Notes: generated by a model from the sequence alone, not told the origin. A stretch of DNA of 64,000 bases from an uncultured Solirubrobacterales bacterium (GCA_963745305.1 CAVUWL010000001.1:32278-96277); one strand, 5' to 3'. Shown: positions 13,626-64,000, counted from the stretch's first letter. Program-made: numbers and translations.

Positions 13626-14984
13626 TCACCCATCGCCCTCGCCGTGATTCCCCACCGGCACCAACCTGTCACGAGGGATATGGACCGGCTCGACTCTCTC
13701 GTTTCCGACCACAACGGCGTAGGCCTCCTCGGCGCCCAGGAACGGCACCAGGCTGATGTAGGCAGACATCCGAATCAGTTCCGCCAATCGCCCCGGCACT
13801 CTCGGCACGTCGATGTCATAGAGCAGCGCGTAGATTGCCCCGCCGATTGCCTCGCCGACGACCGGCGGCGTCTCGGGAGCCAGCTCGTAGCCGGGCTCCA
13901 GCAGCCCCTCGATCATCTTGCCAACGGCCTCGCGGTGCTCAAGCGCCCTGCTTCCGGCCGCATACATATCCGTTCCATTGAGGCGCGCGTACTCGGGCTC
14001 CGCCACGCTGAACTGAAACATTGCCTCCTCGGCCGCCAGCACTCGGTGCTGCCAATCAAAGGCCGAACGCGCCGCGGCCTCCATCTTCAGCGAGGCGTTG
14101 TCCAACGCAGCGACCATCGCGTCCTCTTTGTTGGCGAACGATTCGTAAAAGGTCCGCTGCGAAGTGCGAGCTCGTTGCACAATCTCGGCCACCGAGGTCT
14201 CCAGGTAGCCCTGCTCGGCGATCACCGCGGCCATCGCTCGCAGCACCCGCTCCTGTGGGCTCGAGGCCGCTTGGCGCTCTTCGAACGGCCGCGGCTCAAG
14301 CGAACGCGGCTGTGGTGCCCGCAGTGGACCGGGGGGTGGGGGGTAGCCGAGCATCCAGTCCCAGAGCGCCGGCGCCAGCTCGACCAGCTCCTCCTCTTGG
14401 CCCGAATTAAGGCGCCTGCGAATTACCTTCTGCACCCCGCCGATCAGCGCCCTGATTACCTCCGTCGGCATGTCCTCTCCACCGCGGGCCGAGTCGAGCA
14501 GCCGCTCCAGCACGGCCTCAAATCCGTCCAGTACTCGCTCGGCCAGAGCGACTCCCTTCGGCCCAGCCGCGTAGACATCAAAGACGACCCTCGCCGCCAC
14601 CGGCTGCTCCACGATCGCGCCAATCAGGGCTCCGAACGCCTCCCTGATCGACTCCCGATCTTCTCGCTCCAACCCCCCGCTGAGCCGCTCCGTCACCGGT
14701 TCGACCAGCTCCTCGATCATCGCCAGGAAACAGGCCTCCTTGTCCTCGAAGTGCTGGTAAAACGCGCTCCGCGAAACCCCGCACAACTCGGACAAATCGG
14801 CGACTCGGGTTGCCTCATAGCCTTTCGCCGCCACGGTCGCGAGCATCGATGCGAACAGCCTCTCGCGCTGATTTCGTTCCGCCACATCGCGCGGCGTGCC
14901 TCGTCCTGGGGGCATCATTCTCGCCCTCAGTTCGTCCGAATCGCCCCAGGGAGTTTGCACCATGTCAAGCGACGATACCCCCAT
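13626..14984 (-). CDS. double-domain (tandem-fused) TetR-family regulator, unit 1
   Basis: Two TetR HTH units: RERLFASMLATVAAKGYEATRVADLSELCGVSRSAFYQHF and QERVLRAMAAVIAEQGYLETSVAEIVQRARTSQRTFYESF. By homology with 43003..44286 the true start is probably MVQTPWG at 14963. Confidence 0.85.
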   Translation of the reverse strand: MGVSSLDMVQTPWGDSDELRARMMPPGRGTPRDVAERNQRERLFASMLATVAAKGYEATRVADLSELCGVSRSAFYQHFEDKEACFLAMIEELVEPVTERLSGGLEREDRESIREAFGALIGAIVEQPVAARVVFDVYAAGPKGVALAERVLDGFEAVLERLLDSARGGEDMPTEVIRALIGGVQKVIRRRLNSGQEEELVELAPALWDWMLGYPPPPGPLRAPQPRSLEPRPFEERQAASSPQERVLRAMAAVIAEQGYLETSVAEIVQRARTSQRTFYESFANKEDAMVAALDNASLKMEAAARSAFDWQHRVLAAEEAMFQFSVAEPEYARLNGTDMYAAGSRALEHREAVGKMIEGLLEPGYELAPETPPVVGEAIGGAIYALLYDIDVPRVPGRLAELIRMSAYISLVPFLGAEEAYAVVVGNERVEPVHIPRDRLVPVGNHGEGDG

Positions 14985-14999
14985 CTTGGCCTCCTCAGC

Positions 15000-15045
15000 G
15001 GTACGTCTACGTATTTAAGAGTAAAATTTACTGGTACGTCAACGT
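15000..15045. promoter_or_regulatory. candidate operator: two GGTACGTC(T/A)ACGT boxes in an AT-rich divergent promoter region
   Basis: GGTACGTCTACGT at 15000..15012 and GGTACGTCAACGT at 15033..15045. Each contains a TACGT-nn-ACGT inverted repeat. They are separated by ATTTAAGAGTAAAATTTACT and lie 16-60 nt upstream of the TetR ORF. A TTGACA hexamer sits at 15155..15160. Confidence 0.35.
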
Positions 15046-15449
15046 CCCAGACACCGTATCAAGCCGTGCCTCGTTTCAGCCAATATTTTCCCCATTATAA
15101 TGCGAAATTCGTAGGGCTCGCGACCCGTTTGCTCCTAAATGTTCGCCGATGGGCTTGACAAACGCGGTCCGCATGTGGTCCAATATCTGCGGGCTTACGG
15201 CACCCACTGATCCGTTTGCGGGTAGGCGGTGTTCCAGCCCAGGAGAAGATATGAACCGGCTGACCCGGACTGGGGCAGGGGATCCACGGAAGTGGATCGG
15301 GCCCAGGGGATGGGAAGCCATGGCAGAGGAGTTGCTACGTGAGGACATCGTCGGGACTGGGTTCCGGCTTCACCGCAGATCGAGCCATCGGCTCGGCGTG
15401 GTCTTCCGTGGCCTCTTCCGAGGATTTATCTGTTTCGGTTGTGTCCCTT

Positions 15450-15695
15450 GGCCGCGGCACTGGTTGCTCTGACCTTGAGCGGCTCGCGCAACGCCCCGTG
15501 AGCAAGGTAAGACCGCCCCTCCGCGGCGGAGGCGGGGGCGAGGGAGCGAGATTGCCGGTGATGCTTAGCGCGACCGAGCGGAAGCTGAGCACGCGGACGG
15601 AATTTAAAAATTGCGCTCGTCCCGGCTCCCTGGCCGACGACGCAAATGGAGCCCTGACTCTCCGGGTTCCCGATCAAAACAGCGTGGGCGGCCCC
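15450..15695. repeat. leader repeat modules A+B, copy 1
   Basis: Module A 15450..15606 (157 nt) recurs at 16257..16413. Module B 15611..15695 recurs at 16106..16186. A shorter B relative occurs in the unit-2 leader at 44779..44835 (GCGCTCGTC..TCCCTG..GAC...GGGCGGCCCC). Confidence 0.8.
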
Positions 15696-15860
15696 TTAGG
15701 TCTTGGGGGCAATCCCTGCCGTCCCCGGGCTTGGGCCGCCTGCGACTGTTCTCAGCTCCGTGCCACATCAGGCCGGACCGCAGTCACCCGCAGGGTGGCC
15801 GCAGGCCGAGGCCGAGCTGTTGCGAGTGCGTTGACGGCGAGTCCGGCTCACAATTTCCTC

Positions 15861-15937
15861 AGGTCGGCAGGGAGCTTTGCCTCTTCGCCCACCTACTGTC
15901 CCGCCACCACGCTGTCGGCAAAACTCCCTGCCGACCT
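15861..15937. repeat. long hairpin (21-bp stem, 35-nt loop), copy 1
   Basis: AGGTCGGCAGGGAGCTTTGCC at 15861..15881 pairs with GGCAAAACTCCCTGCCGACCT at 15917..15937 (one mismatch). Confidence 0.8.
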
Positions 15938-16105
15938 ACATGCTGGTGTAGGCGTAACCGCTCCATCCCACGACGCGACCCCGGGGACCACCACCCCCAC
16001 CGCGTCTCTCGCCCTAACGGCTGGCCAAACCATCCGGGCTGTGCCATCCTCGTTGGGCTTCTTCCCGGTCCAGCACCCTCAAGTGATGGCCCCCAACTTC
16101 CAAGC

Positions 16106-16413
16106 TTGCGCTCGTCCCGGCTCCCTGGCCGACGGCGCAAATGGAGCCCTGAATCTCCGGGCTCCTCGTAACGGTGCGGGCGGCCCCTACAGCCTCGCGA
16201 TGCTCCCTGCTCCCGAGTCTGGGGCCGCCCGCGTCTCCTCTTCAAGCCCTGCTCTAGGCCGTGGCGCTGGTTGCTCTGACCTCGAGCGGTTTGAGCAACG
16301 CCCCGTGAGCAAGGTAAGACCACCCGTCCGCGGCGGAGGCGTGAGCGAGGGAGCGAGATTTCCGGTGATCGTGAGCGCGACCGAGCGGGAGCTGAGCACG
16401 CGGACGGAATTTA
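16106..16413. repeat. leader repeat modules B+A, copy 2
   Basis: See 15450..15695. The order of B and A is swapped relative to copy 1. Confidence 0.8.
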
Positions 16414-16439
16414 TGAGGACCGCGGCCAATAATCTAGTT

Positions 16440-16516
16440 AGGTCGGCAGGGAGCTTTGCCTCTTCGCCCACCTATCGTCCCTTCTCTCCTCTCTCGGCAA
16501 AGCTTCCTGTCGACCT
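16440..16516. repeat. long hairpin, copy 2
   Basis: AGGTCGGCAGGGAGCTTTGCC at 16440..16460 pairs with GGCAAAGCTTCCTGTCGACCT at 16496..16516 (two mismatches). It lies about 170 nt upstream of the first cassette gene. Confidence 0.8.
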
Positions 16517-16684
16517 ACATGCCTCAGTTTCCGTGACCGTTTCGTCCCTCGACGCGTCGCGGGGGACCACCGAGTCCGCCTCGTCCCTCGCTCCAAGGGC
16601 TACCCACTCCTCCCTGCCCATCTACCTGGCTCGGTGGGCAGGGAGGAGTGGGGGAGACGGCTTCGCCGCCAGCGGAGCCCCCGG

Positions 16685-19376
16685 ATGAACTCCCCCCGCG
16701 TTCCCCTCGCGCTCGCTACGACCCTCGCCGCGCTCACGTCCCTCGTTCTCACTGCCTCCCCCGCCCTCGCCAAGGAATTCCACACCTTCAAATCCTCCTT
16801 CGGAAAAGGCGGATCCGGCAACGGGGAACTCGCCCTGGTTGCCCCCAGCCTCTCCGAACCAAAGAGCGCGGGCAGCGACCTTGCCGTCAACACCGAAGCC
16901 GGCGACGTTTACGTCGCCGACACCGGCAACGCCCGCGTCCAGGTGTTCTCATCCTCTGGCAGTTTCATTCGTACCTTCGCCACCGCCGACCCAACCTTCA
17001 TTGCCGTAGATAACTCCACCGGCGCCTCCAAGGGCGACGTCTACGTCGCCGACTCCACCACCAACACCGTCTCCAAATTCCAATCCAACGGCACCCTGAT
17101 CACCAGCTGGGGCACCGTCGGCCAGCTCTCAGGCTTTGCCGGCATCGCTGGCATCGCCGTCGACTCCTCCGGCAACCTTTGGATCTACGACCAAACCGGC
17201 CAGATGCGCGAGTACGCCCCAGACGCCAGCCCCATCACTGAATGGAACTCCGGCTTTGGCGTCACTCCCATCGGCATCGCCGTCGACTCCTCCGGCAACC
17301 TCTACGTCGCCCGCGGCGAACCCGCTATTGCCAAGCTCAGCACCACCGGCGCGACCATCGCCGAATCGGTCGATCCCGGCCCTGCCACCGGCCTCGCCCT
17401 CGACCCCTCCGGCGATGACCTCTACGTCGACCACGGCGCCGAAGTCGTCCACTACGGCTCGACCGGCGAACATCTTGAGAGCTTCGGTCTTCCCGATAGC
17501 GGCGCAGGTGCCGGCCTTGCCCTCGGCTCCTCCCACACCGTCTACCTCGCCGACACCACCAACCAGCGCATCGACATTTTCACTCTCAGCCCCGGCGTCG
17601 ACCTCACCGTCGCCAAGCAAGGCACCGGCTCCGGCGAAGTCACCTCCAGCCCGTCCGGCATCGCCTGCGGCTCCACCTGCACCGAAGAATTCGCCAACGG
17701 CGGCAAGGTCATCCTCACCGCCACCCGCGCCACCCACAGCAAGTTCACCGGCTGGGAAGGCTGCCCAAATGTGATCAGCACCAACGAATTCGACCCCAGC
17801 GAATGCGAAGTCCCAGATCTCACCGCCGCCTCCGAAGTCAAGGCCGCCTTCGAGCCGATCCCCCAGGCCGAACTTAAAGTCGAACTCGAAGGCTCCGGCG
17901 AACTCACCAGCTCTCCCTCCGGCATTGCCTGCACCGAAGGTGACGCCGGCACCTGCGCCGCACAATTCGACACCGAAGGCCCCGAAGCCACCGTCACCCT
18001 CTTCGCCTCGGCCGCCGCCGACAACCACTTCAAGGAATGGACCGGCTGCGAAGAACCGAGCGAAACCGAATGTAAGGTCACGATCAGCGCCGCCCGCTCG
18101 GTCAAGGCCGTCTTCGCCCCCACCTTCCAGACCCTGCCAATCGCCAAATCCGGGCCCGGCGAAGTCACCAGCTCTCCCGCGGGAATCGACTGCGGCGAAG
18201 ACCAGTGCTCCCACGAATTCCAGGAAGGCTCCACCGTCACCCTCACCGCCAGTCCCGGCGCTCACAACCACGTCACCTGGGGGCCGGGGAGTGCAAGGCC
18301 GAATCTGGCCCCAACCACGAACAATGCGAAGTCGAAATCGGCTCCTCCGAAACCACTGTGCAAGCCGAATTCTCCGTCAATATCCACACCCTCACCGTCG
18401 CCACCAGCGGCGCCGGCTCGCTCAGCGCCGCCAGCGGCCCGATCTCCAACTGCCCGAAGTTCGGCGGCACCTGCTCGGGCCGCTACCCCGAGGCCTCCAC
18501 CGTCACCCTCATCGCCTCGCCCTTCGCCCACCACCACGTGGAATGGGAAGCTGGCGAGTGCACCGAAGAACCGAGCCCCACCGAATGCGAAGTCGAAGTC
18601 GGCCCCTCTGACGAAACACTCCCCGTCGCCTTCGCCCCCAACACCCAGACCCTCACAGTCCTCCCCACCGGCCCCGGGCTCATCAGCGCCGACAGCGGCA
18701 CGATCGCCTACTGCTCCGCGACCGGCGGCACCTGCTCGGGCAACTACATCGAAGCCGCCACCCTCACCCTGATTGCGTCCCCCGGCCCCGGCCAGGCGGT
18801 CTCCTGGCATGGCTGCGCCGCCGAACCCACGTCCGACACCTGTCAAGTCGAAATCAGCCCCGCCGCCTCCGCCGGTAAAAGCCACCTTCGCCCAAATCAC
18901 CCACACCTTGATCGTTACCAAGGTCGGCTCCGGACAGGGCTCGGTCACCTGCAACGGCGCCCCCTGCGCCTCCGCCTACCCCGCAGGCACCGACCCTCAC
19001 GCTCACTGCCACCCCCGCCGCCGGCTCCACCTTCGCCGGCTGGAGTGGGGGAGGGTGCTCCGGCACCGGCGCCTGCCATCTCACTCTCGAAGCCGACACC
19101 ACCCTCACCGCCACCTTCAACGCCAAACCGCCGCCAGCCGAACAACACTGCGTCGTCCCCACCCTCACCGGCAAGACCCTCGCCCAGGCCGGCTCCGCCC
19201 TCGGCGCCGCCCACTGCACCCTCGGCAAGGTGACCAAACCCAAGCCTAAGAAAGGTCACAAGCTCGGCCCGCTCGTCGTCAAGTCCATCTCACCGCCCGC
19301 TGGCACCACCTTGCCCGCTGACAGTCAGGTCAACGTCACCCTCGGCTCGAAGCCTAAGCCTAAGAAGAAGCACTAG
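16685..19376 (+). pseudogene. secreted NHL-propeller + InlB-B-repeat protein with PASTA-like C-terminal domain, three frameshifts (unit 1)
   Basis: Signal peptide MNSPRVPLALATTLAALTSLVLTASPALA. NHL blades GDVYVADTGNARVQVFSSSG, GDVYVADSTTNTVSKF, GNLYVARG. About seven repeats of G.GEVTSSPSGIACG..C...F..G..V.LTA.P...S.F.GW.G.C.....C.V. C-terminus CVVPTLTGKTLAQAGSALGAAHCTLGKVTKPKPKKGHKLGPLVVKSISPPAGTTLPADSQVNVTLGSKPKPKKKH. Frame changes at the G5 run 18279..18283, near 18870 and near 18990. Confidence 0.8.
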
Positions 19377-19679: not shown

Positions 19680-22600
19680 ATGACCTCCCGCCCTGCCCGC
19701 AGCCTCCTCGCAACGCTCGCTCTAGCCACCGGGTTGTTCCTCACCATCGCAGGTTCGGCGTCCGCCGAAACCTACACCAAGATCGCCGAAATCACCGGCC
19801 CCGAAGGCTCCAAACCCGCCCCCCCGCCCCCGAATTCCAAGCAGTGAACCCCGGGGAGGGCGTCGCCGTCGACCCCGCCAACGGCCACATCTTCATCGCC
19901 GACAGCAGCGCCGGCAAGGTCTACGACTTCTCCTCCCCCTCCGACACTTCCCCCACCGTCATCGACGGCTCCACCACCCCCTCTGGCCCCTTCCCCAGTG
20001 AACGAGACAATCTCTCCCTCGCCGTCGACAACACCACCGGCGACCTCTACGTCTTCGACGCCTCCCACGCCCTCCTCGACAAGTTCGACCGCAACGGCAA
20101 TCTCATCACCAGCTTCGGCGACGCCACCCCCACTCCCGACGGTCAGCTCACCGGCGCCGCCACCCCTGCCCACTCCTTCCGTCCTTATCAGGGAGCGTTT
20201 AATGGAGGTGAATCTGCGCCAATTGCCGTCGACCAGCAGACCGGCGAACTCTACGTCCTCGACCAGGGAGCCGAGGACGAAGCAGACCAGCCAGGGGAAG
20301 TCACCAAACACCAGGTCGTCGACGCCTTCGACCAAAACGGCGCCTACCTCCGCCAGCTCACCGCCTCTCCCCATGAACTGTACTCAATTGCGACCCACCT
20401 CACCTCGATCGCCGTCGATGCCGCCTCCGGCCACCTCTTCCTCTTCGACCCCTTCCACCAGCAAACGGCGGGGAAAGGAGGAGCCACTTATCCTCCCGAA
20501 CTGTACGACTTCGACGCCTTCAGCCTCGAATTTCTCGACACCTGGAACGGCGCCGAATCCCCTCTCGGCCCCTCCTCCCGCACCCCCCAAGGCAAGCTCG
20601 GCGTTACGGCCAATGTCGCCACGGATGATTCGGGCCATCTCTTCGTCGCCGTTGGCAGCAACAACGAAGGAGAAGAACCGTTCAGGGACCTCGACGTCTT
20701 CGACACCTCCGGCGCCTACCTCTTCCAGGTTCCGCTCCCGATTCCACCCACAAATACCTCTGAACGAAATTCCGCCGGTTTGGCCGTCGACGAAGCCACT
20801 GGCGACCTCTATGTCACCACACACAATGCGAACTCCGTCGAAGTCTACGCCCCCACCGTCCCCGGCCCCCGCATCGCCCCCCAACCCGCCTCGCCCCCCA
20901 CCCGCACCGCGGCCACCGTCCACGCCGCCGTCCAGCCCAATCCCGGCGAAGAAATCACCTTCTGCGCCTTCGAATACGGCACCACCCAGGCCTTCGGCCA
21001 AACCGAATCCTGCGCACCCTCACCTCCCTACACATCAGCCAAGGAAGTCGACGCCAATCTCACTGGCCTCTCCGCCGGCACCACCTACTTCTACCGCCTC
21101 TCCCTCACCAACTCCGCCGCCCACACCCGCACCGGCCCCATCCGCTCCCTCCAAACCCTCCCTGCCGTCACCGAACTCCAGACAACCGCCCCCGCCACCG
21201 CCATCACCCAGCAGTCGGCCACCCTCCACGGCTCCTTCACCGGCGAAGAAACGCTCGCCACCGAATACTTCTTCGAATACGGCACCTCCGCAAACTACGG
21301 TCAGAAGACCTCCACCGCCACCGTTCCCGCCCCCGCTTCCGCCACTCAGCCCGAGCACCGTCGAAGCCCCGAATCGAAGCAGAACTCGTCCCCGGCACCA
21401 CCTACCACTACCGCATCGTCGCCGAAAACAAATTCGGCACCACCGTCGGCCAAGACGAGACCTTCACCACCTACCCGGCCCCCCACCATCGAAGGCTTCT
21501 CCTCCTCCGACCTCACCGCCACCTCCGCCGACCTCCACGCCACGATCAACCCCCAGGGCTTCCCGACACCACCTGCCGCTTCGAATACGGCACCACCACC
21601 GCCTACGGCCAGACCGCCCCCTGCCCGAACCGCTCGAAGGCACCTCGGCTCCGCCAGCGCCAGCGTCGAAGTCCACATCCCGGCCTCCAGCGCGGCGTCA
21701 CCTACCACTTCCGCGTCCTCGCCGCACAACGCACTCGGCGGCACCGCCACCTCCGAAGACCAGAGCTTCGAATTCTTCCCCCCCGCCTGCCCCAACTCCG
21801 CCGTCCGCCAGCAGACCGGCTCCGCCTACCTCCCCGACTGCCGCGCCTACGAGCTCGTCTCCCCCGCCAACGCCAACGGCACCCTCCTCTTCCCCGGCGG
21901 CCCCAACACCGGCCAGGCCACCAGCCCCTCCCGCTTCTCCTTCGTCGGCGACTTCAGCGCCCTCCCCGGCGCCGAACACCATCGACACCGCCGGCGACCT
22001 CTACGTCGCCACCCGCACCGACACCGGCTGGGTCTCCCACTACATCGGCCTCCCCGGCAACCAGGCCGGCTGCATCGGCGGCCCGCCCAACCAACCCTGA
22101 GACTCCAGCCAGGCACGCGGCCCGACCAAGATCCAGAACACGCGTCCTCACCGACCCCTCGATGAGCCGCTTCCTCGACTTCGTCGACGGCGCCCCGATC
22201 GCCTGCTTCGGCGGCGGCAACGGCACCGGCGACGCCGGCGACGCCATCGCCTCCGCCTCCAACGCCCCCTACCTCTGGAGCGCCGAAGGCAGCCCCTCGC
22301 CCGCCTCCCCACCGACCTCGCCTCCACCCCCGGCGCCGCCGCCGCCCTCGACTGCCCCCTCGCCGACAACGTCCAGCTCGGTCCCGCCAGTGCTCCAGCG
22401 AAGTCACCGCCTCCGCCGACCTCACCCACCTCGTCTTCTCCTCCAACCGGCTCTCCTTCTCCGCCCGAAGGCGGCCTCACCGCCGCCCCCGGCTCCGCCT
22501 ACGACGACGACCTCGCCACCGGCGAAGTCACCCTCATCTCCAGGCTCCCGGCACGGCGGCAGACCATCCCCCAGGACCCCTCCTTCGCCACCGTGCCCGG

Positions 22601-27329: not shown

Positions 27330-27440
27330 TGGGCGCCAAGCTAAAGTTCGCCACTGCCCGTGCCAAGCTCCGGCGCAGCCGGGAGTGGGGGAGGGGTGTG
27401 TCTTCAGTCCCATCCACCGCAGCGGCCCAGTCGCCGATAG

Positions 27441-27545: not shown

Positions 27546-27628
27546 GAGCCCAAGCGAGGGAGCGTCACCAATTGGTTCTTCGTGACCGAGCGAAGATCAC
27601 GCTCTGGGCGCGGAACAGGCGCCGGGCT

Positions 27629-53583: not shown

Positions 53584-53640
53584 AAGAGCAGGCGCCATCC
53601 ACGCCGAGCCGCTCATCACGATGGCAGGGCTGCGCGATGA
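53584..53640 (+). other. predicted 3' exon of giant gene 1 (KSRRHPRRAAHHDGRAAR-stop)
   Basis: Joining 51627 to 53584 gives ...TKRHKR-KSRRHPRRAAHHDGRAAR*. The uninterrupted unit-1 paralog reads KHHKR-KSKRHNHRAARQPEGRK* (CACAAGCGC-AAGAGCAAGCGCC at about 24052..24073 vs CACAAGCGC|AAGAGCAGGCGCC). Confidence 0.65.
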
Positions 53641-53708
53641 GCGCAGAGCAAAGAAGCAATCGCCATCTATCTCATTTTGGATATCGAGCCCGCCACAAAT
53701 TATCCATT

Positions 53709-56663
53709 ATGATCTCGCCTCTTCGCCTCTTCGCCGCAGCGGTCTCAGGATTCCAGCCGACTGAGGATCTCGAGGCGCGTGGCTCCGCGCGCCGGCTGAG
53801 CATCGCCGTGTGCGTGACCGCGGTGGTGGTGGGCTTGCTGGTGCCCGCAGTTGCCCAAGCGGTACCGATCTTTCGCTTTACCACCCTGCCCTCCACCACA
53901 CAGGCGGGCGGTCATCCCGACGTCGCCTTTTCATATGCGGTCGGCAACCGTGCGCAGAATCCCAGTCCTTGCGGCTGTGATGACCCTAAGAACATCTCCG
54001 TTCACCTCCCCACTGGTCTGATCGGCAATCCCCATGCCACCCCGCAGTGCACCATCGCCGCATTTGCCTCAGAAGAATGCCCTACCGACTCTCAGGTCGG
54101 GATCACCCAGGTCCACGTAAGCACCGGCACCTGCATCGAACTGGAAGAATGTACGATCAGCTTTCTGACCCCCGTCTTCGCCCTTGTCGCTCCTCCCGAA
54201 GACGCGGGCCTCCTCGGTTTTAAAACCGGCATTTTCGCCAGTCCGATACTCACAGTCATAAGCTCCCGTACCGACAGCGACTACGGTATCAACGCGACGG
54301 TCGAAAATACCCCACATTTCTTCCCGCTGTTCAGCTTCAAAGAGGATATCTGGGGTATTCCCTCCGAACATAGCCACGACGACCTCAGATTTGGCTTCCG
54401 TCAGTTGCCGACAATCGGAGGGACGGAAATCTGTACGACCGGCGGTGAACCGAGTACCTTCGACCCCAACACGATGGCCACCTGGTGTCCGTTCCGCGGA
54501 GAACACAAAGCGGTTGGCACAAACACCGAATTCGGTGGACCCGGAGGTCCCGTTTCCTCCGACAGCCCCCACGTCCCTTTCTGGCAAAACCCAACCACCT
54601 GCGGTGAATCTTCGCTCGTTGCCTCGCTCGACGTCCTCAGCTACACAGAAGAATTTACCCAGGCGGACTCCTCCTACCCTGCGACCACCGACTGCGATCA
54701 GCTCACCTTTAACCCCAGCCAATCGGTGGTCCCCACGACATCGGCTGCAGATTCACCCTCCGGCGCCGAACTGCATCTCAGCGTTCCCCAGTTCGAGAGC
54801 CCCAGCGTACCGTCACCCTCCGAGCTCCGCGACGCCACCATCACCTTTCCCGAAGGCTTCTCCCTCGCGCCTAACGTGGCCAACGGCAAGACCACTTGTT
54901 CCGAAGCGCAGGCGCGTTTTGGCACGACCGAAGAAGCCCAATGCCCCGAAGACGCGAAGGTCGGTACGATCTCCATTGATACCCCCGTCCTGCCCGGCCC
55001 CCTCCTCGGCGCCGTCTACCTTGGTGAACCGCAACCGGGCAACCGCTTCCGACTATTCCTTGTCCTCGACGGCTTCGGACTCCACATCAAGCTGTCTGGC
55101 AAGGTCATCCCCGACCCGGTCACGGGGCAGATTCGAATCGCCTTCCAGAACCTCCCTCAAACCCCCTTTGAATCCTTCAACGTGCACATTTTCGGCTCCG
55201 AGCGGGGCGCCCTCGACACGCCGAGCCAGTGCGGCTCCTATGAAGTAAGCAGCGTCTTCACTCCGTGGGACGCCGCTCTGCCAGAACAGACCTCCCGCCA
55301 GTTCTTCAAAGTGACCGAAGGGCCAAACGGCAGCTCCTGCCCAGACGGCGCGCGCCCCTTCAGCCCCGGCTTGAAGTCTGCCTCTTCCGCCAACACCGCC
55401 GCCGCCCATACCTCATTCTCGATTGATCTGACCAGAAACGACGGCGAACAGAATCTGAAGGCGCTGAACGTCACCACACCACCGGGCTTCTCTGCGACCC
55501 TTAAGGGCGTTTCTTATTGCCCGGACGCCGCGATCGCAGCCGCCGCCCTGGAAAGCCATACAGGTCTCGCTGAGGAAGCCAGCCCCAGCTGTCCTGCATC
55601 GAGTTTGATCGGCGAATCGAGCGCCGGAACCGGAGCCGGCGATCACCCGCTTTTCCTCCCCGGCAGGGTCTACCTTGCCGGTCCTTACAAGGGTGCGCCG
55701 CTAAGCCTCGCGATCATTACTCCGGCAGTCTCCGGAGGCTATGACCTCGGCAACGTCGTGGTCCGCGCTGCGCTTCATGTCAATCCCGAAACCGCCCAGA
55801 TCACCGCCATCTCTGACCCCCTGCCCCAGATCTTCCAGGGTATCCCCCTCCGCCTGCGCGCGATTCTCGTCAACCTCAACCGTCCGGGTTTCGCCTTAAA
55901 CCCGACCGATTGCAACCCCCTCGCCGTGACCGCTCAGGTCTTCGGCACAGAAGGCGCCGTTTCCACCCCCTCCGAGCACTTCCAGGTCGCCAACTGTGTC
56001 TCCCTCTCCTTTGCCCCCAGGCTTGCGATGGGATTCTCGGGCTCCACCAAACGCGCCGGCAACCCGTCTCTTCGCACCGAACTCACCTATCCAAGCAGCG
56101 GCCCCTACGCCAACGTCTCTCGCGTCGCCGTCACCCTGCCGCCAACCGAGATTGTCGACAACGCCCACATCAAGGACCCTTGCACCAAGGACCAGTTCTT
56201 CGAAGGCAAGGTCCCCGGCGAAAAGTGCCCCCCAGGTTCCGACATCGGCTTCGCAAAGGCAAGCACGCCCCTCCTTGAAAAGCCCCTCGAAGGCCCGGTC
56301 TACCTGCGGACCGGAGGCGGCCACAAGCTCCCCGACATCGTCGCCGCCTTAAACGGTCAGATAGACATCGCCCTCGACGGCCACGTGGACGCCGTTCACT
56401 CTGGCATTCGTACCACCTTCGAAACAGTCCCCGACGCCCCCGTTTCCCACTTCACATTGAGCCTCGACGGCGGACGTAAGGGTCTCCTCCAAAACGACAC
56501 GAACCTCTGCACCAACACCCTTCGCGCGGTCGCTGACATCGCCGCCCAAAACGGCAAGGCGGCTAATCAGAACCCCGTTCTCAGCACTCCTTGCGCCAAG
56601 AAACACCAAAAGCGCGCCAGGCTTGGACGAGCTTTGGGCGTCAACCGGGCAGGTGGGCGTTGA
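53709..56663 (+). CDS. QAGGHPD-motif secreted protein, type A (unit 2), intact
   Basis: Signal-like LSIAVCVTAVVVGLLVPAVAQA. FRFTTLPSTTQAGGHPDVAF (53901..53921). LIGNPHATPQCTIAAFASEECPTDSQVG. WQNPTTCGESSL. FPEGFSLAPNVANGKTTCSEAQARFG. VYLGEPQPGNRFRLFLVLDGFGLHIKLSGKVIPDPVTGQIRIAFQNLPQTPFESFNVHIFGSERGALDTP. GIPLRLRAILVNLNRPGFALNPTDC. Tail TPCAKKHQKRARLGRALGVNRAGGR. Start ATG 53709 is the first in-frame ATG before the hydrophobic segment. Confidence 0.8.
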   Translation: MISPLRLFAAAVSGFQPTEDLEARGSARRLSIAVCVTAVVVGLLVPAVAQAVPIFRFTTLPSTTQAGGHPDVAFSYAVGNRAQNPSPCGCDDPKNISVHLPTGLIGNPHATPQCTIAAFASEECPTDSQVGITQVHVSTGTCIELEECTISFLTPVFALVAPPEDAGLLGFKTGIFASPILTVISSRTDSDYGINATVENTPHFFPLFSFKEDIWGIPSEHSHDDLRFGFRQLPTIGGTEICTTGGEPSTFDPNTMATWCPFRGEHKAVGTNTEFGGPGGPVSSDSPHVPFWQNPTTCGESSLVASLDVLSYTEEFTQADSSYPATTDCDQLTFNPSQSVVPTTSAADSPSGAELHLSVPQFESPSVPSPSELRDATITFPEGFSLAPNVANGKTTCSEAQARFGTTEEAQCPEDAKVGTISIDTPVLPGPLLGAVYLGEPQPGNRFRLFLVLDGFGLHIKLSGKVIPDPVTGQIRIAFQNLPQTPFESFNVHIFGSERGALDTPSQCGSYEVSSVFTPWDAALPEQTSRQFFKVTEGPNGSSCPDGARPFSPGLKSASSANTAAAHTSFSIDLTRNDGEQNLKALNVTTPPGFSATLKGVSYCPDAAIAAAALESHTGLAEEASPSCPASSLIGESSAGTGAGDHPLFLPGRVYLAGPYKGAPLSLAIITPAVSGGYDLGNVVVRAALHVNPETAQITAISDPLPQIFQGIPLRLRAILVNLNRPGFALNPTDCNPLAVTAQVFGTEGAVSTPSEHFQVANCVSLSFAPRLAMGFSGSTKRAGNPSLRTELTYPSSGPYANVSRVAVTLPPTEIVDNAHIKDPCTKDQFFEGKVPGEKCPPGSDIGFAKASTPLLEKPLEGPVYLRTGGGHKLPDIVAALNGQIDIALDGHVDAVHSGIRTTFETVPDAPVSHFTLSLDGGRKGLLQNDTNLCTNTLRAVADIAAQNGKAANQNPVLSTPCAKKHQKRARLGRALGVNRAGGR

Positions 56664-59600
56664 TGAAGACCAAGCCCAATCTGCTTCGCTTTTTCCGCGA
56701 TTCAGTGTGTATTCAGCTTGCCGTCACTTCTGTCGTTGCGATCGCGGCACTCCTTTTTACCGCCGCCCCCGCTCTCGCCGACCGCAGCTACGACACCCAG
56801 ATCACCGAACTTCCGGACGCCTTTGGCATTACGGTGGATTACTCCGACAGCCTTTGGGTCGCCAACTCCGGCAACAACGGTCAAATCTCTGAGTATGGGC
56901 CCTTCTCCTCAAACCTCGTCGCCACCCAGAACGGCAGCGGCGCCGGTGAACAATTCAGCGCCTACTACAACCGAAGTGTGGCGCTCGACGATCTGAACGG
57001 TTACCTCTACGTCGCAAACTCTGACACAGATAAGCTGGATGTCTTCGAAAATGGCACCGGGCCCCTTATCGAACAATGGGGTGGCTTCGGCGGTGGGTTC
57101 GTCTACGCGGCCATCGACAACTCAGGGGGGACCGCAAACGGTACAGTGTATGTGGCAGCCTCCGGCCCAAAGAATATCCAGGCCTTTGACGCAAATCATA
57201 GCCAGGCCAATTTCTCGGCCCTCGACGAGCCATATATTGCCGGTAACCGAATCACCGGAACGCCCAATGGCACCTTCGGCTTCATTCGAAACATCGCTGT
57301 TGATTCCAACGGCAACATTTATCTTGTTGACCAGGAAAAGAGTGAAGTCGACGAGTTCAAGCCAAGTGGCGAATACGTTCGCTCCTTCAAGAAGGCGGAA
57401 CTCACCACCCCGACCGCTGTTGCGGTCGACCCGACCAACGCCAACGTCCTCATAGCGGAAGAAGGCGGTGGGGTCATTGACGAATTCACTTCCTCCGGTG
57501 AATTCCTCGCCCAGATCAATGGATCGGAAACCCCCGCCGGATCGTTCTCGCCCGCCGGCATCTCCTTCAACTCCGAAGGCTACCTGTATGTCTCCGATTC
57601 CGCGCACGAAGCGGTAGACCTCTTCACTCCGAACGTCCCACTACCCAAGATCAGCTATGAACCACCATCGAACCTCAAGCAGACCTCCGTCACTCTGAAC
57701 GCAAAGGTCGATCCCAACGGCGGTGAAGTCACCGGCTGTTACTTTGAATACGGGGTCACCGCCGCCTACGGCTCGCCCCATGTCCCCTGTTCGCCAGAAC
57801 CTCCCTACTCGGGAACCGCAGAAACCAACGTCAGCGCCGAAATCTCGGGGCTCACTTCTGAGACCGCGTATCACTACCGGGTCGTGGTCACAGCTGCGAG
57901 CGGCCATCCAAGAAGGGGTGGCGATCAGACATTCACGCTGCACGCCGTGGCGAACCTCGCGACCGAACCGGCGACGGCGCTTACTCCCACCGGCGCCACG
58001 CTCAACGCCTCCTTCCTCGGCAACGGCGAGGACACCCACTACTACTTCGAATGGGGGACCACCACCTCCTACGGAAACCAGACGACAATTCCACCGGGAG
58101 AAGATGCCGGCTCCCCCTCGGGCCCGACCCCCACCGGACTCTCATTTCACCTCACAGGCCTGGAACCGGCAACCACCTATCACTACCGGGTGGTCGCTGA
58201 AAACGGCGCCGGCACGACCACGGCCGGCGATCGGACCTGACGACTCCGGCGGCGCCGCCCCTGGTCAGCGGCGAGCAGGTGGGCAATGTGCATGCCGATA
58301 CCGCCCAGGTACACGCTGAGATCAATCCGGGCGGGGGAGAAACCACCTACCACGTCGCCTATGGCACCACCAGCAGCTACGGATCGCTCGGCCCGATCCC
58401 CGATGCAAAAGCGGGATCCGGGAGAACTCTGCAGAGCGTCACCGTCCAGCTGAGCGCCCTCACGCCCGGCACCACCTACCACTACCAGGTGGTCGCTCAG
58501 AACGCCACCGAAACCACCAAGGCGACGCGACCGTACCTTCACGACCCTGCCTTTCACCAAGGAAATCACCGACACCTGCCCCAACTCCCACGTCCGCCAG
58601 CAGACCGGCGCCGCCCAACTCCTCGACTGTCGCGCCTACGAGCTGGTCTCCGCGGCCAATACCGCCGGCTATGACGTCGAGTCCAATCTCGTCCCCGGCC
58701 AGGCCCCCTTCGCCGGCTATCCCGCAAGCCTCCGGCCGGGTCCTCTACGGCGTCCACGACGGTGCCATCCCCGGCGTCGGCTATCCGACCAACCGCGGCG
58801 TCGACCCCTATCCTCGCCACCCGCGGCGCAAGACGGCTGGAGCACCGAATACGTCGGCATCCCCTCCAACGCAACCCCCTCCTCCGCTCCCTTTGCCTCG
58901 ACCCTGCTCGAAGCCGACGCCGGCCTCGACACCTTCGCCTTCGGCGGCCCGGAAATCTGCTCGCCCTGCTTCGCCGACGGCTCCACCGGCGTCCCGCTCC
59001 GCCTCCCGGCGGCGAGCTGATCCAGGGCATGGCCGGCTCGCTCGACCCCGGTCCTGCCGCCGAACCGGCCGGCTACGTCGCCAAGCCGCTCTCCGCCGAT
59101 GGCACCCATCTCGTCTTCGGCTCGACGTCCAAGTTCGCAGCGGGAGGGAACTCCAAGGCCAGATCTCGATCTATGACCGCGATCTGAGGACGAACGAAAC
59201 CCACGTCGTCTCCGACGATTCCGCCGGCAGCCCGATCGCCTGCCTCAACAACTGCTCATCCGACGGAATCGCCGAGCTCGACATCTCCAAGGGACGGCTC
59301 CCACATCCTCCTCGGCCAGCTCGTCGAAGAAGCCGGAGGTGCCAAGTACTGGCACCTCTACATGAATGTCGATGACTCGGTCCAGACGGTCGAACTCACC
59401 CCCGGCACCGCCGCAGGCGTCCTCTTCGACGGCATGACCGCCGATGGCTCCAAGGTCTTCTTCTCCTCCGAAGAACACCTGACCCAGGAAGATGAACAGC
59501 ACAGCGGCGCTGACATTTACATGTGGGAAGAAGGGCCACCCGCTCACCCTGATCTCCCAGGGACCGAAGGCAACGCAAGCTCATGCGATCCCGCCGCCAA

Positions 59601-61765
59601 CACCGCACACGTTCACTGGAACACGGCCGAAAAAGAAGAAGAGAACTGCGGCGCCGTCGCCGTCGGCGGAGGCGGGGGCGTAGCCTCAGCCAACGGCACC
59701 ATCTCCTTCCTTTCCCCCGAGCCTCCTCGACGGCTCCCAGAACGCAGACGGCGTCAAGAACGCCCCCAACCTCTACATTGTCCGTCCCGGCACTGGCGCC
59801 CCATTCGTCGCCACCCTCGAATCGTCCCTGAACACCTCGCTCCCGCCAAAAACGATCCACCCGTTCGTCGGTTCCTTCGGCTCGTTCGAAAAGCCCACCG
59901 CCGTCGCGATCGCCGAAGGCCCCGGTGAAGAAGGTGACACCTACGTCCTCGACACCGGCCGAACATTCGGACCGGGTTTGGCGAGGAAGTTCGACCCCGC
60001 TGGTGACCCGATCACTGCATTCGGCAAGAACGGCAAACTTGCCGGGCAGAGCGCCAAAGGCAGCGGCGACCTACAGAGCGGCTCGACCACGATCGAATCG
60101 GTGACGACGACCGGCGGCGCCTTCAGCGTCGGCCAGGGAATCACCGGCGCCGGCATCCCCTCGGGGGCGACGATCACAGCCCTCGGCGCCGGCTCGCTTG
60201 AAATCTCTCAACCAGCGACTGCGTCGGGACTCACATCGCTAACCGGCGGGCTCAACTTTGAAGAGTACGGCTATGCCGGCATGCCGGGCGGAATCGCGGT
60301 CGACAACGATCCTTCCAGCCCCTCCTACCGCGACCTCTACGTCCCCGACCTCATTCACGACGTCATCGACAAGTTCGGGCCTTCGGGCGAATTCATCTCC
60401 CAGATCAAATCTTCCCCAATGCATTTCCCACTGGTGCGACGGTTGATCAGGCCAACGGGGACGTCTACGTCTCCGAGTATTCCCACCGAGCGGTCCAGGT
60501 CTTTGGGCCCACGGAGAAGCGATCAAAGCGCGGAAACGAATTGGAACATAGCCCCACCGGGGTCGGCGTAGCCTCGGACGGCGGCGTCTACGTCGTCGAC
60601 GGCGACGGGATTACGCCAGAAGGAACCGAAGTCTACGAACCTTCCAGCCACTCGCCGCTCGAATACAAAAGCACAGGCAAACTGTTTGACGCGAACCCAT
60701 CCTTCGGCGTCGCCGTCGCGCCCGACGGAAGCGTTTACGTCGACGAAGGCACCCAGGTCAGCCAGTTCGATCCCGCCGGTCAGCGGCTCGGCACTCCCCT
60801 CGGCGTCGGGCTACCTGAAGGAACATCCCGTACTCACGGGTGGCACGGCCTCAATTGGGCTTGGCGCGAGCTCAAATAGCCTGGTCATCTCCAACCCCGG
60901 CTCCGGCCCCGGCGAAAACGGGGACGCTATCGCCTTCCGCTCCCTCTATCCGCCCTCCCCGCAGACCGACAACCCGCTCGTCGTCGATTCGGTCACTGCG
61001 CCCGAAACTCGCCAAACGGCCGACTTCCAGATCACCCCCTCGGGCAATGACGCCGCTTTCACCTCGACCCTCGCCCTGGCGGGCCATGAAGAAGAAACCG
61101 CCGGCAACACCGAGGTCTACCGCTACGACGCCCCGACCGAAAGGCTCGACTGCGTCTCGTGCACCCCCACCGGCGCTCCCTCGGCGCGGCGAAGCCGGCC
61201 TAGCCTCCGAATGGCTTGAGCCTCACCGACGAAGGCCGCGTCTTCTTCACCACCACCGACCAGCTCACCGCGGCCGACACCGACAAAAAACAGGACGTCT
61301 ATGAGTGGGAGCCCCTGGGCGCCGGGAACTGCGAAGAATCCAGCCTGAGCTTCACAAGGCCAGCGAACGCATGCCTCGCGCTGATCTCCGCCGGCACCAG
61401 CGCCTTTGACTCCGGCCTGCTCGGCGTCGATGCAAACGGTAAGGATGCCTACTTCTTCACCCGCGACAGCCTCGTCCCCCAAGACAAGAACGGCCCTACG
61501 GTGAAGATCTATGACGCCCGCGAAGGCGGGGGCTTTCCCTTCGAACCACCCCCGGCCCCATGCAGGGCCTCCGATGAGTGCCACGGCGCTTCAAGCCCCG
61601 CTCCCCCGCCGCTCGAGGTCGGCAGCGAATCAGGCACTCCCATAACCATGGAAACGAACCGAAGGCCTGCAAGAAGGGTTACGTCAAAAAGCACGGTAGC
61701 TGCGTCCGTAGAGCACGCAAAGGCACCACAGGCGAGCCAACCCCCACCGTGGAGGTCACAAGTGA
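56663..61765 (+). pseudogene. giant secreted beta-propeller protein 2 (unit 2), many frameshifts
   Basis: ATG 56663 overlaps the preceding stop (TGATG). MKTKPNLLRFFRDSVCIQLAVTSVVAIAALLFTAAPALA. NHL blades (DSLWVANSGNNGQISEY, GYLYVANSDTDKLDVF, GNIYLVDQEKSEVDEF, GYLYVSDSAHEAVDLF). FN3-like modules (CYFEYGVTAAYG, TAYHYRVVVTA, YYFEWGTTTSYG, TTYHYRVVAENGAG, TTYHYQVVAQNA). TCPNSHVRQQTGAAQLLDCRAYELVSAANTAGYDVES. CRASDECHG. ACKKGYVKKHGSCV. Tail RHHRRANPHRGGHK ends at TGA 61763..61765. The first 1.6 kb is one ORF (56591..58240); afterwards coding blocks are scattered over all frames. Confidence 0.75.
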
Positions 61766-61881
61766 GCGCCACCACGGGAATGCGGTGGTTGAGGTATTCT
61801 GCTGCCCCGCCGGAGGCTTTCGGTTCAAGCGTGGCAAGGACGCCACACCGCGCAAGGTCCGGAGTTGCAGCAAGTTGCTGA

Positions 61882-64000
61882 TTGCCAGTATTCTTCATCC
61901 TGGCGATCAACACTGCGCCATCCGGAGCAGCGGAGCCAATCACCTCCTTCAAGACCACCCTGATCGAAGCGAATGCCTTCGGCGAATCCGGCAAGGTCTT
62001 TTCAGGGGTGATCAAGAGTGCTCCCAGCCACCAGAGCTTCACGATTGAAACGCCCAGCGGGTCGATCGACACGGTCGTCGCTTTCCCAACCACGAAAATC
62101 AGCGGCCACGGTTTCTCGGAACTCTCACTAAGCAGCCTGCAAAGCGGGGAATCGGTCGTGGTTTTGGGATCCCTCTCAGGCGCCGGTGCGATCATAAACG
62201 CCGCACGGATCTTCGTCGAACCGAAACCGGGAGAATTGACGGTTCCGAGCCTCGAATTCGTCACGGAAGGCGTCGTCCAGGCCGCACCCAGCGGGGAAAG
62301 CTTCACGATCGAAACTGGCGGCGGATCGATCGACACGGTCGACGTCTCTACCTCGACCACATATAGCAGGGCAGGCCGGTGCCAGGCATCCCGCAGCCGA
62401 GCTTGGGCGATGTCAGAAACGCCGATTTCGTGGGGATCTCCGGAACCATCTCAGGCACGACTGTGACAGCGACTCACGTTGTTATCGCTACCCCTCAAGC
62501 CGGCGGTCACCCCGACCTTAAAACCTCCTTCGCGCTCAAAGACCCCGGCGCGCCCGAAGCGGCTAGGAACATCATCTTCAACGCGCCCACCGGAGTCTTC
62601 GGCAACCCCCGCGCGATCACCCAGTGCCTCCTCGCCAGCTTTGCCCTCAATGAATGCCCACCCAACTCCCAGGCCGGCCTGATCACGATCCATGCCAACT
62701 ACGCGGGCAACCCCGATTACCTCCTCGGCACCGCCCCGATCTTCTCCATCGCTCCCGAAGAAGGAGAAACCGCGCGCTTCTCTTTCATCGTCCCCGTTCT
62801 GGACATCCCGATCACAATCCCCGTGACGGTCCGCACCGCCACCGACTACGGCCTGCGTTTCACCGTCTCCGACATCGCCGAGCTCGCCCCTCTCGCAGAA
62901 GCCAAGCTGACCTTCTGGGGCTTCCCGGCCGACGACAAGCCATGATGCCGAACGCTTCCCGATCGGCACCCCCGGCAACCCGACCGGCTGTGCCCACGAA
63001 GTTGGCACCGGCTGCATCGCCGAACCGACTTCGGACAGCATCGTGCCCCAGCCCCTACTGGACAACCCGACGGTCTGCACGGGCAATGAACCCACCAGCC
63101 TGCTCGAAGTGCAAACCTACGGGGACCCCACGCACCCCTCCGAAGATAGTGCCACCTACCCCCCGATCGAAGGCTGCGAGAGAGAGGTCTTCAAACCGGT
63201 CCTCCAGGCCTCTCCCACCACCACCCAGACCGACTCCGCCTCGGGCCTCAACGTCGACCTCAAAACTCCGCAGTTCCTCACCTTCGCAGCCGAGCCCTCA
63301 GAGATCAAAGCTGCCGACGTCACCCTGCCCGAAGGGTTTCACGATCAACCCGGACGCCGCCGACGGGCAGACCGCCTGCAGCGAGGCCCAAGCCAACTTC
63401 GAATCCGAAGGCCCCGCCGAATGTCCCGATCAGTCCAAGATCGGCACCTTCTCGATCGGCACCCCTGCTCTGCCTGAACGTCTCGAAGGCTCCGTCTACC
63501 TCGGCGAACCGAAACCCGGCGACCAGTACCGCCTATTCATGATCGCCTCGGGGTTCGGTATGAACATCAAGCTCGATCGGCTCGGTCAGACCCAACCCGG
63601 TGACCGGCCAGCTCACCGCCGAATTCCCAAACCTGCCCCAGGCACCCTTCGAAGACTTCCAGCTGCACCTCTTTTCCGGCGAACGGGCGCTGATGGCAAC
63701 CCCGACGTCGTGCACGATCTACACAGTGAACGGCGAGTTCTACCCTTGGAACGCGACTCAGCCCGAACAGAGTTCAAGCCAGATCTTCGGCCTCGAATCA
63801 GGTCCCCACGGCAGCGAATGCCCCGGCCCAGATCCGTCCCTTCAAACCAAGTTTGGAAGCCGGCACCACCAACGCCACCGCCAACGCCTTTAGCTCCTTC
63901 AGCCTCAAGCTAAGCCGCGAAGACGGAGATCAGAATCTCGGCCACATCAATTTCACCATGCCTCCCGGCCTGACCGCCAACCTGCACGGGATTACTTACT
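61882..64000 (+). pseudogene. QAGGHPD-motif secreted protein, type B (unit 2), frameshifted, runs off the window
   Basis: AEPITSFKTTLIEA plus DUF5666-like repeats (GVIKSAPSHQSFTIETPSGSIDTVVAF; GVVQAAPSGESFTIETGGGSIDTVDV). PQAGGHPDLKTSF (62496..62516). VFGNPRAITQC. NECPPNSQAGLITIHANYAGNPDYLLGTAPIF. Premature TGA at 62943. Later blocks lie in ORFs 63043.., 62654.., 63600.. (LPEGF, GEPKPGDQYRLFMIASGFGMNIKL, FPNLPQAPFEDFQLHLFSGERALMATP). An in-frame TGA directly precedes 61882 inside the signal-peptide-like region. Confidence 0.75.

Follow-up and report, generated by a model that had tools for sequence, protein, structure and literature searches.

The 64,000-nucleotide (nt) stretch of an uncultured Solirubrobacterales bacterium analyzed here (GCA_963745305.1, CAVUWL010000001.1:32278-96277; hereafter the window) carries two tandem, diverged copies of a gene cassette with a conserved four-gene core, in which genes for giant propeller proteins (G1, G2) alternate with genes for proteins of the QAGGHPD family (QA, QB; together Q). 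An initial annotation had described two units with an identical six-gene order. We compared positions 13001-42900 with positions 42901-64000 by blastn, and all stop-to-stop segments with one another by blastp. Both comparisons gave a single collinear series of matches, on identical strands and far above chance, which bears out the shared gene order: a fused TetR regulator (-), an NHL/InlB-B protein, G1, QA, G2 and QB, repeated once.

The paired regions were the fused TetRs (13713-14966 vs 43042-44289, -; 44% amino acid (aa) identity, offset 29,329), the InlB-B repeat regions (17579-19159 vs 45639-47206, +; 49–82%, offset ~28,060), G1 (20327-24076 vs 47947-51654, +; 33–43%, offset ~27,610), QA (24499-27326 vs 53859-56660, +; 53% over 539 residues, offset ~29,330), the C-terminal 60% only of G2 (30182-33673 vs 58225-61764, +; 39–70% by segment, offset ~28,000–28,065), and QB (36049-38080 vs 61927-63999, +; 43–75%, offset ~25,920). 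The constant offset of ~29.3 kb that had been proposed was not recovered, as offsets varied between 25.9 and 29.4 kb; most of the jumps are accounted for by a group II intron in each unit, inserted at sites that are not homologous (33671-35628 and 51628-53585). N-terminal pairing was poor: the NHL propeller of the InlB-B protein of unit 1 (InlBB-1) is missing in that of unit 2 (InlBB-2), and the G2 protein of unit 2 (G2-2) has a G1-like N-terminus. The TGATG stop/start overlap reported between QA and G2 in both units was confirmed at 27327-31 and 56661-65, and the signal peptide of G2-1 starts at 27629, 100 codons beyond the overlap. The window is high in GC (~0.60–0.73), with a plus strand that is strongly C-rich over the cassette genes. 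Unit 1 (16000-40000) has a GC content of ~0.65–0.70 and a GC skew of -0.22 to -0.39, and unit 2 (44000-64000) a GC content of ~0.60–0.66 and a weaker negative skew of -0.12 to -0.23. C-homopolymers of at least 6 bases are far commoner in unit 1 (18 within 16.6–33.7 kb) than in unit 2.

The super-cassette is not peculiar to this stretch and belongs to a multicopy family. Species-representative genomes were scanned and yielded at least 575 related loci; all counts given below refer to the best 80 of these. The 80 loci all lie in metagenome-assembled genomes (MAGs) of Solirubrobacterales/Thermoleophilia, with at least 4–6 loci per genome within this subset. The OY970304.1 chromosome (2.87 Mb) holds five of the 80 loci and six G2-type paralogs. 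By our estimate, one cassette copy takes up ~17 kb of a genome of ~2.9 Mb. QA is directly preceded by a G gene in 77 of the 80 loci and followed by G and QB in 70, and the Q genes are ordered QA..QB in 67; QB-QA-QB tandem arrays, as in the window, were seen in five. Of the six-gene module originally proposed, the coherent and conserved core therefore stands, and the conserved unit is the four-gene G-Q-G-Q set, ~17 kb elsewhere and often with small genes downstream. In the intact locus L001, G1 (1416 aa), QA (955 aa), G2 (1547 aa) and QB (901 aa) are followed by the small genes S205, S262 and S162; all three junctions between the large genes are 4-nt overlaps, and the signal peptides stand right at the overlapping starts. 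Across ~145 G-to-Q junctions, stop and start codons overlapped by 4 nt in about half and by 8 nt in about a quarter, where a start codon at a fixed position would be expected by chance in a few percent only. Because G1 and G2 (27–35% identical) and QA and QB (42%) are homologous, the four-gene core is best read as an old duplication of a G-Q pair.

The two units themselves are ancient paralogs that predate species divergence, since for each gene other genomes hold relatives that are closer than its counterpart in the sister unit. This agrees with the earlier view of an old duplication rather than an assembly duplicate. The fused TetR of unit 1 (TetR2-1) is 63% identical to that of locus L078 and 44% identical to its unit 2 counterpart TetR2-2, which ranks 19th among its matches; QA-2 has 66–75% identity with proteins elsewhere and ~53% with QA-1; and at the C-termini, G1-2 reaches 60% with L012 and 44% with G1-1, and QB-1 72% with L004. 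Two other origins, an assembly artefact through collapsed or duplicated contig ends and a tandem duplication of very recent date, would explain the repeated order and nothing else. Both have next to no likelihood for units that are 66–79% identical in DNA and 33–65% in protein, that differ in GC content (~0.67 vs ~0.62) and that are each closer to cassettes of other genomes; judged by these sequence comparisons, both are refuted. The reading frames raise a separate question. According to tblastn with intact homologs, 7 of the 10 large structural genes required frame correction (InlBB-1, G1-1, QA-1, QB-1, G1-2, G2-2 and QB-2); G2-1, QA-2, InlBB-2, both TetRs and both intron reverse transcriptases (RTs) are intact. 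The long open reading frame (ORF) at 35659-39147 (QB-1) contains out-of-frame stretches. Outside the cassettes, recA (~3956-5200, -) is split into two frames by a 1-nt indel near 4496-4557 that is not in a homopolymer, so frameshifts are not restricted to cassette genes, and other flanking genes gave partial Pfam matches only. The closest relatives come from Nanopore-only metagenome assemblies with a single Medaka polish. Because recA and the partial flanking genes are affected as well, and the relatives stem from such once-polished assemblies, the frameshifts are most likely assembly errors rather than gene decay. Homopolymers as the cause of all of them fitted in part, with C-runs enriched in unit 1 and several sites, including that in recA, outside homopolymers. 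Decaying pseudogenes, that is, non-functional relics of the family expansion, would also account for ~25 frameshifts, for the multiple corrections in the 7 genes and for sites outside long homopolymers. We consider this quite improbable: the same indel type in the core gene recA and the partial flanking matches point to errors throughout the window, the frames between shifts are open and 50–80% identical in aa to intact homologs, other assemblies carry intact homologous cassettes, and the once-polished origin of the close relatives argues in the same direction.

The initial annotation could not place the QAGGHPD family, and our searches gave the same picture: Q had no match in Pfam, NCBIfam or the PDB sequences, and the names at the source are all 'hypothetical'. 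QA-1 (24400..27329, +), recognized by tblastn and its QAGGHPD motif, has at least 5 frameshifts. QA-2 (53637..56663, +; 1008 aa) is intact and 100% identical to the public protein P0001. QB-1 (35935..39197, +), reconstructed from its translation, tblastn frames and junction sequence, has ~5–6 frameshifts and ends in the tail KSKRSKHGTKRRRR, and QB-2 (61882..64000, +; 60–72% to QB by tblastn) has ~4 frameshifts and is cut at the window end. The QAGGHPD motif lies ~14 residues past the predicted signal-peptide cleavage site. The homologs of QA-2 number at least 952, all 'hypothetical' and devoid of Pfam domains, the named ones coming from Solirubrobacterales MAGs. Run against 1.84 billion cluster representatives (clusters at 50% identity), a Q profile matched at least 9,805 clusters with E ≤ 1e-3, of which 3,758 reached E ≤ 1e-30, the named examples being hypothetical proteins of Actinomycetota or Thermoleophilia. 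In this search, as many as 16 stretches matched within a protein of 7,161 aa. Giant family members (P0121-P0128; 3,420–7,161 aa) contain 8–18 matched stretches, and the Q module is therefore also a tandem repeat inside single polypeptides. Both window QBs have an extra N-terminal repeat domain of ~200 aa before QAGGHPD (35935-36540 and 61882-62430), with repeats such as VQAAPSGESFTIET..GS.DTV.VS.STTY, which the QB of L001 lacks. The multi-Q-module protein P0124 is named 'Cu/Ag efflux protein CusF' by the Joint Genome Institute (JGI), possibly owing to such an N-terminal domain.

The AlphaFold2 (AF2) model of QA-2, built from a 45-sequence alignment (predicted local distance difference test (pLDDT) 81, predicted template modelling score (pTM) 0.68), is all-beta, with beta-sandwich domains arranged in a chain, and together with the Foldseek results it indicates tandem immunoglobulin (Ig)-like domains. 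Against the PDB, Foldseek returned integrin alpha legs, complement MG domains, SdrD, ClfA, Sgo0707 and the pilin-like 3lso, with template modelling (TM) scores of at most 0.26; against a viral library it returned DUF11, Ig and PKD proteins, generic multi-Ig matches only. Many cysteines are invariant in Q proteins. In having a Sec signal peptide and a chain of Ig-like beta-sandwiches, Q resembles the microbial surface components recognizing adhesive matrix molecules (MSCRAMMs; SdrD, ClfA), the Corynebacterium pilin-like 3lso and Sgo0707, and a surface display like that of these adhesins is presumed. There is no sequence homology with them, and the TM-scores are just 0.2–0.26. Unlike these proteins, Q lacks an LPXTG motif, a hydrophobic anchor and a cassette sortase, and is always paired and translationally coupled with a giant propeller protein.

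Among the G proteins, G1-1 (19680..24115, +; tblastn to L001 G1, signal peptide, basic tail) has at least 4 frameshifts and G1-2 exon 1 (47395..51627, +; tblastn 40–55% to G1, signal peptide) has 2. G2-1 exon 1 (27329..33670, +), an intact ORF of 2114 codons, was assigned by its Pfam NHL matches, AF2 propellers and TGATG overlap with QA; G2-2 (56663..61765, +), with the G1-like N-terminus, was assembled from tblastn frames across at least 5 frameshifts, the same overlap with QA and a tail motif at 61668. NHL repeats (PF01436, gathering cut-off 20 bits) scored 76.8 bits in G2-1, 85.9 bits in L001 G2 and 76.9 bits in InlBB-1, and Pfam further returned fn3/PhoD_N/Pur_ac_phosph_N-like domains and weak SGL matches for G. 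Among PDB sequences, the proteins that G matched were NHL binding modules, namely those of TRIM71, TRIM2/3 and the PknD sensor. AF2 modelling of the last 1033 aa of G2-1 gave tandem beta-propellers (pLDDT 77), for which Foldseek listed only generic double propellers: those of WD40 type, LRP YWTD propellers, GH74, PorZ and the BT4663 sensor. On these models, the G proteins are predicted to be stacks of beta-propellers and fn3-like domains. They are comparable to the propellers of the PknD sensor, the BT4663 periplasmic sensor and PorZ in their NHL scores above cut-off and predicted tandem propellers. Unlike those proteins, G combines several propellers with fn3-like domains in secreted proteins of 1,400–2,100 aa, carries a cationic Cys-hairpin tail, and has no kinase, two-component or type IX secretion system (T9SS) partner.

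The large proteins share features of exported proteins. Sec-type signal peptides were visible on their readable N-termini, in line with the earlier statement that every structural gene product carries one; they contain 18–35 cysteines each, many of them invariant, and 9–20 K/R/H among their last 30 residues. A C-terminal LPXTG-like motif was absent from the seven proteins tested (one internal LAVTA occurs at residue 738 of QA-2), and the maximal hydropathy of the last 80 aa was at most 0.54 in 6 of the 7, L001 QB reaching 1.49, so that no C-terminal hydrophobic segment was evident in those six. No sortase Pfam family was found in the L001 gene table or the scanned window ORFs. A sortase-anchored adhesin or pilus was rejected because the C-terminal LPXTG motif with its hydrophobic segment and the sortase gene are both missing. 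Instead, the motif C[KR]xGF[VI][KR]KxGxC[VI], a hairpin followed by a K/R/H-rich tail, lies ~21 residues before the stop. It occurs 30 times across 23 loci, on the cassette strand only, in G2-type and InlB-B proteins; the window sites are 33602, 47220 and 61668. None of the NCBIfam C-terminal sorting models matched it, and this Cys-hairpin tail motif may be a new surface-retention signal.

Blastn further revealed an off-diagonal block between the units (33670-35628 vs 51627-53585; 90% nt identity, offset 17,957), which coincides with two group II introns. Intron 1 (33671..35628, +) interrupts the basic tail of G2-1 between codons (phase 0), with an RT/maturase ORF at 34287-35564, and intron 2 (51628..53585, +) lies in the basic-tail codons of G1-2, with an RT ORF at 52229-53521. 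Both are ~1.96 kb long with intact ORFs of 425 and 430 aa (RVT_1 137 bits, GIIM 60 bits; TIGR04416 408 bits vs a cut-off of 300). Rfam places domains D1-D4 upstream of the ORFs (RF01999, 105 and 107 bits; gathering score 36) and DV/DVI downstream (RF00029, 57 and 56 bits; gathering score 40). The similarity begins exactly at GTGCG (33671 and 51628; canonical GUGYG) and ends at 35628 and 53585. By RT/maturase, ribozyme domains and 5' boundary, both elements are group II introns, and the statement that the cassette holds no enzyme had overlooked these two RTs. A diversity-generating retroelement (DGR) reading of the RT genes was rejected, as the Rfam and TIGR04416 matches, the latter at equivalog level, identify group II introns with ribozyme domains; the inter-unit repeat at the RT genes is the intron itself.

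Relatives of the introns, 84–94% identical in nt, are present in L014 (16193-18160), L079 (16556-18500) and L003 (20103-end), and a diverged copy in L078 (~12716); an RT was present in only 3 of the 80 loci. Wherever the site is readable, the intron interrupts the polybasic-tail codons of a cassette gene (G1, G2 or QB) in phase 0, following the residues ...HKHRHH in window G2-1, ...RHRTKRHKR in window G1-2, ...KHGKCVKK in L014 G2, ...HNKHHKHHKR in L079 G2 and ...CKAKRHKR in L003 QB. Read past the 3' end of intron 1, a predicted exon 2 of G2-1 (35629..35655, +) would add TSQPQARR and a stop upon splicing; unspliced read-through would append VRHERSKKHRAKHHRKGSVHS, another basic tail. The window elements resemble bacterial group II introns in their TIGR04416-level RT, D1-D4 and DV/DVI domains, GUGCG 5' end and length. 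Unlike usual group II introns, this lineage sits always in phase 0 in polybasic-tail codons, in several genomes. From these positions, we infer that the introns are secondary invaders homing into tail-coding DNA. Behind intron 2 (53586-53710), the frame stays open, without a stop codon, as far as the QA-2 ORF and into it; an assembly error may hide a stop here, or splicing may yield a genuine G1-QA fusion. Fused G-Q proteins exist in databases (P0071 with 1556 aa, P0073 and P0080).

Both units begin with an intact fused TetR gene on the minus strand: 13626..14984 in unit 1 (452 aa; Pfam TetR_N in two stretches, 80 bits) and 43003..44286 in unit 2 (427 aa; TetR_N twice, 83 bits). Each chain thus holds two TetR_N helix-turn-helix (HTH) domains at about twice the normal TetR length. 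In PDB searches the unit 2 regulator gave weak matches to TetR proteins; one of these, Mce3R (PDB 9b7y), likewise has two TetR_N HTH domains in one chain of ~430 aa. The cassette differs from the Mce3R case in that the PDB match is weak (E 5.3e-6) and covers one HTH region (residues 227-311 only), and in its lack of mce-type target genes. The fused TetR, earlier described as dedicated to the cassette, is present in both window units; among the 80 related loci, a full-length copy on the opposite strand within 10 kb upstream was present in only 29, and any TetR-like match upstream in 44.

Between the TetR and the core lie the accessory InlB-B proteins. InlBB-1 (16685..19376, +; Pfam, tblastn frames, ~3 frameshifts) has the signal peptide MNSPRVPLALATTLAALTSLVLTASPALA, an NHL propeller, InlB B-repeats (Flg_new_2, PF18998; 40.5 bits over 16634-18772) and a polybasic tail. 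InlBB-2 (44862..47297, +; 811 aa, intact) has a signal peptide, five Flg_new_2 stretches (132 bits) and a Cys-hairpin polybasic tail with the motif at 47220. Both are above the PF18998 gathering cut-off of 23.6 bits and are InlB B-repeat proteins on this measure; such a protein was found upstream of the core in only 5 of the 80 loci.

Four small genes behind QB in unit 1, absent from the earlier description, are conserved elsewhere: S205 (39280..39849, +; C-terminus frameshifted, 69% identical to the L022 and L013 copies), S262a (39999..40859, +; tblastn 41% to L001 S262), a weakly matching S162-like gene (~41335..41770, +; tblastn 34% over 41335-41625, 53.5 bits, merged match to 41770) and S262b, a second S262 paralog (42006..42830, +; 29–31% to S262a, 67% to L029). 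S262a and the S162-like product are small secreted proteins, the former containing cysteines. S205 is a small membrane-anchored protein with an N-terminal anchor, a tail-fibre-like repeat (weak match to the phage repeat phrog_892, 1.2e-5) and a Cys-containing C-terminal domain. Its 1,297 homologs across MAGs are 65–94% identical to the L001 copy (L001 20226-20843), which makes it far more conserved than the adjoining G and Q (45–66%). The S205 sequence had no match in the PDB, and library scans with S262 and S162 returned no family. S262 as a single Q-type module, suggested by motifs seen by eye, was rejected at an hhalign probability (A2 vs A1) of 1.3%. Among loci with room behind QB, S205 followed in 22 of 65 and S262 in 18 of 61.

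Taken with the predicted folds, these features are best explained by a regulated cell-surface binding complex, a reading we hold with middling confidence. G and Q would be exported and would assemble at ~1:1 into disulfide-stabilized complexes. The cationic tails, the membrane-anchored S205 or both would hold these complexes non-covalently on the envelope. The complexes would present variable propeller surfaces and could in this way bind external ligands or surfaces. TetR would keep its own cassette off until a small-molecule cue releases it, and gating of each cassette in this manner would let paralogous cassettes serve different conditions or targets. The claim of an undescribed cell-surface or extracellular system holds insofar as the cassette has no name in the libraries, and a cell-surface or extracellular role is plausible. 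A wider joint reading is possible and more tentative: G-Q-G-Q, S205, S262 and the double TetR might together form an unrecognized, Thermoleophilia-specific Gram-positive envelope apparatus. This would comprise multicopy, individually ligand-gated, heteromeric propeller/Ig-like surface complexes, attachment by a new cationic Cys-hairpin C-terminal signal in place of sortase, a family occupying several percent of ~3-Mb genomes, and a dedicated group II intron lineage specialized on tail-coding sequence.

Several points weigh against the proposal of a regulated surface complex. The function is a deduction from folds and sequence features, the matches at fold level are generic (TM-score ≤0.33) and fit enzymes or structural proteins equally, and anchoring by a basic tail is an analogy. 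On the regulatory side, the intergenic regions beside the TetR genes gave no convincing operator-like palindromes, promoter and terminator scans gave counts at or below shuffled expectation, and TetR linkage is limited to ~36–55% of related loci within 10 kb. Of the loci with room for them, only about one in three has S205, and likewise S262, behind QB. If the frameshifts were genuine, most large genes here would be dead.

The main rival takes the G proteins for beta-propeller enzymes (lactonase-, lyase- or glycosidase-like), secreted to break down polymers or small molecules in a catabolic cassette resembling a polysaccharide utilization locus (PUL), with Q as scaffolds or carriers and TetR as the substrate sensor. 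It draws on weak SGL/SMP-30 gluconolactonase-like matches (E 1.5e-7 to 3.5e-7), weak PDB matches to an exported gluconolactonase and peptidylglycine amidating monooxygenase, automatic JGI names such as 'sugar lactone lactonase YvrE', and GH74 and PorZ among the fold matches. The small-molecule sensing typical of TetR proteins and the many paralogous cassettes, each with its own regulator as in PULs, would fit it too. We nevertheless consider it rather unlikely, because the matches are short, near or below curated cut-offs and usual for any NHL or six-bladed propeller, binding modules (TRIM71 and the PknD sensor, for example) account for most NHL matches, and the cassette lacks a transporter or downstream catabolic gene. 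Very improbable, in our view, is a retroelement hypervariable system (DGR), a phage-derived or defence locus, or a polymorphic toxin-delivery locus, which would draw together the RT genes adjoining the C-termini of large secreted proteins, the weak tail-fibre repeat match of S205 and the large serine recombinases upstream. Flanked by ribozyme domains, the RTs are genuine group II intron maturases, found in just those 3 loci, and the recombinases are unlinked to cassettes elsewhere. Nine cassette proteins matched none of the PADLOC families, library scans returned no toxin, nuclease or immunity domain, and PHROGs gave nothing for Q and at most a generic propeller for G (in G2), the S205 repeat being the only other, weak, match.

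Bacteroidota PULs are many paralogous cassettes per genome, each with a conserved surface-protein pair and often its own sensor or regulator. The cassette is like them in organization only, by analogy and without homology, and unlike them it has no SusC/SusD homologs, outer membrane, glycoside hydrolases or transporters. A regulated surface-binding cassette would, by analogy, be closest in its working to Gram-positive surface adhesin loci, with a somewhat PUL-like organization. The NHL, fn3-like, Ig-like and TetR domains themselves are ordinary. In the libraries and literature searched, the Q family, the G-Q coupling, the tail motif and the multicopy cassette organization had no counterpart, and the literature on Solirubrobacterales with NHL or giant surface proteins yielded nothing relevant. 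Solirubrobacterales are abundant soil bacteria, and the cassette-bearing lineages are known here from MAGs only. Naming and characterizing the module would annotate thousands of 'hypothetical' giant proteins, and could reveal how these bacteria interact with surfaces, substrates and neighbours; the tail-specific group II introns are a natural case in which an intron lineage keeps to a single protein-coding motif. A partial likeness exists to Giant1-5 of Apilactobacillus kunkeei, described as one array of five extracellular proteins of 3,000–8,000 aa (PMC12863079). As far as that description goes, both are consecutive genes for very large extracellular proteins that fill several percent of a small genome, and they differ in domains and phylum and in the many dispersed or tandem G-Q-G-Q copies with regulator and small partners found here (PMC12863079).

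Upstream of the structural genes of unit 1, a repeat-rich non-coding spacer (15447..16606, strand unassigned) was delimited by a repeat search and two hairpins (15860-15938 and 16439-16517; arms 21–22 nt, loop 35 nt). A search with the hairpin motif gave 4 matches where 0 were expected. The hairpins are possibly a MITE-like (miniature inverted-repeat transposable element) or REP-like (repetitive extragenic palindromic) element, and the hairpin spacer is probably outside the system. The arm motif TTAGGTCGGCAG recurs once upstream of G1-1 (half-site 19595-19606), and unit 2 lacks the element. Duplicated segments make up the 1.7-kb spacer that separates TetR2-1 from the first structural gene. Directly upstream of unit 1 lie two adjacent, paralogous large serine recombinase genes (8925-10925 and 10929-12941, -; 666 and 670 aa, 49% identical). 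A link between recombinases and cassette was rejected, as recombinases are absent across the 80 related loci save for a fragment in L032. Farther upstream are a tyrosinase-like gene and its PpoB2 copper-chaperone partner (6466-7242 and 7389-8582, -); the tyrosinase Pfam match is partial, which may reflect a further frameshift.

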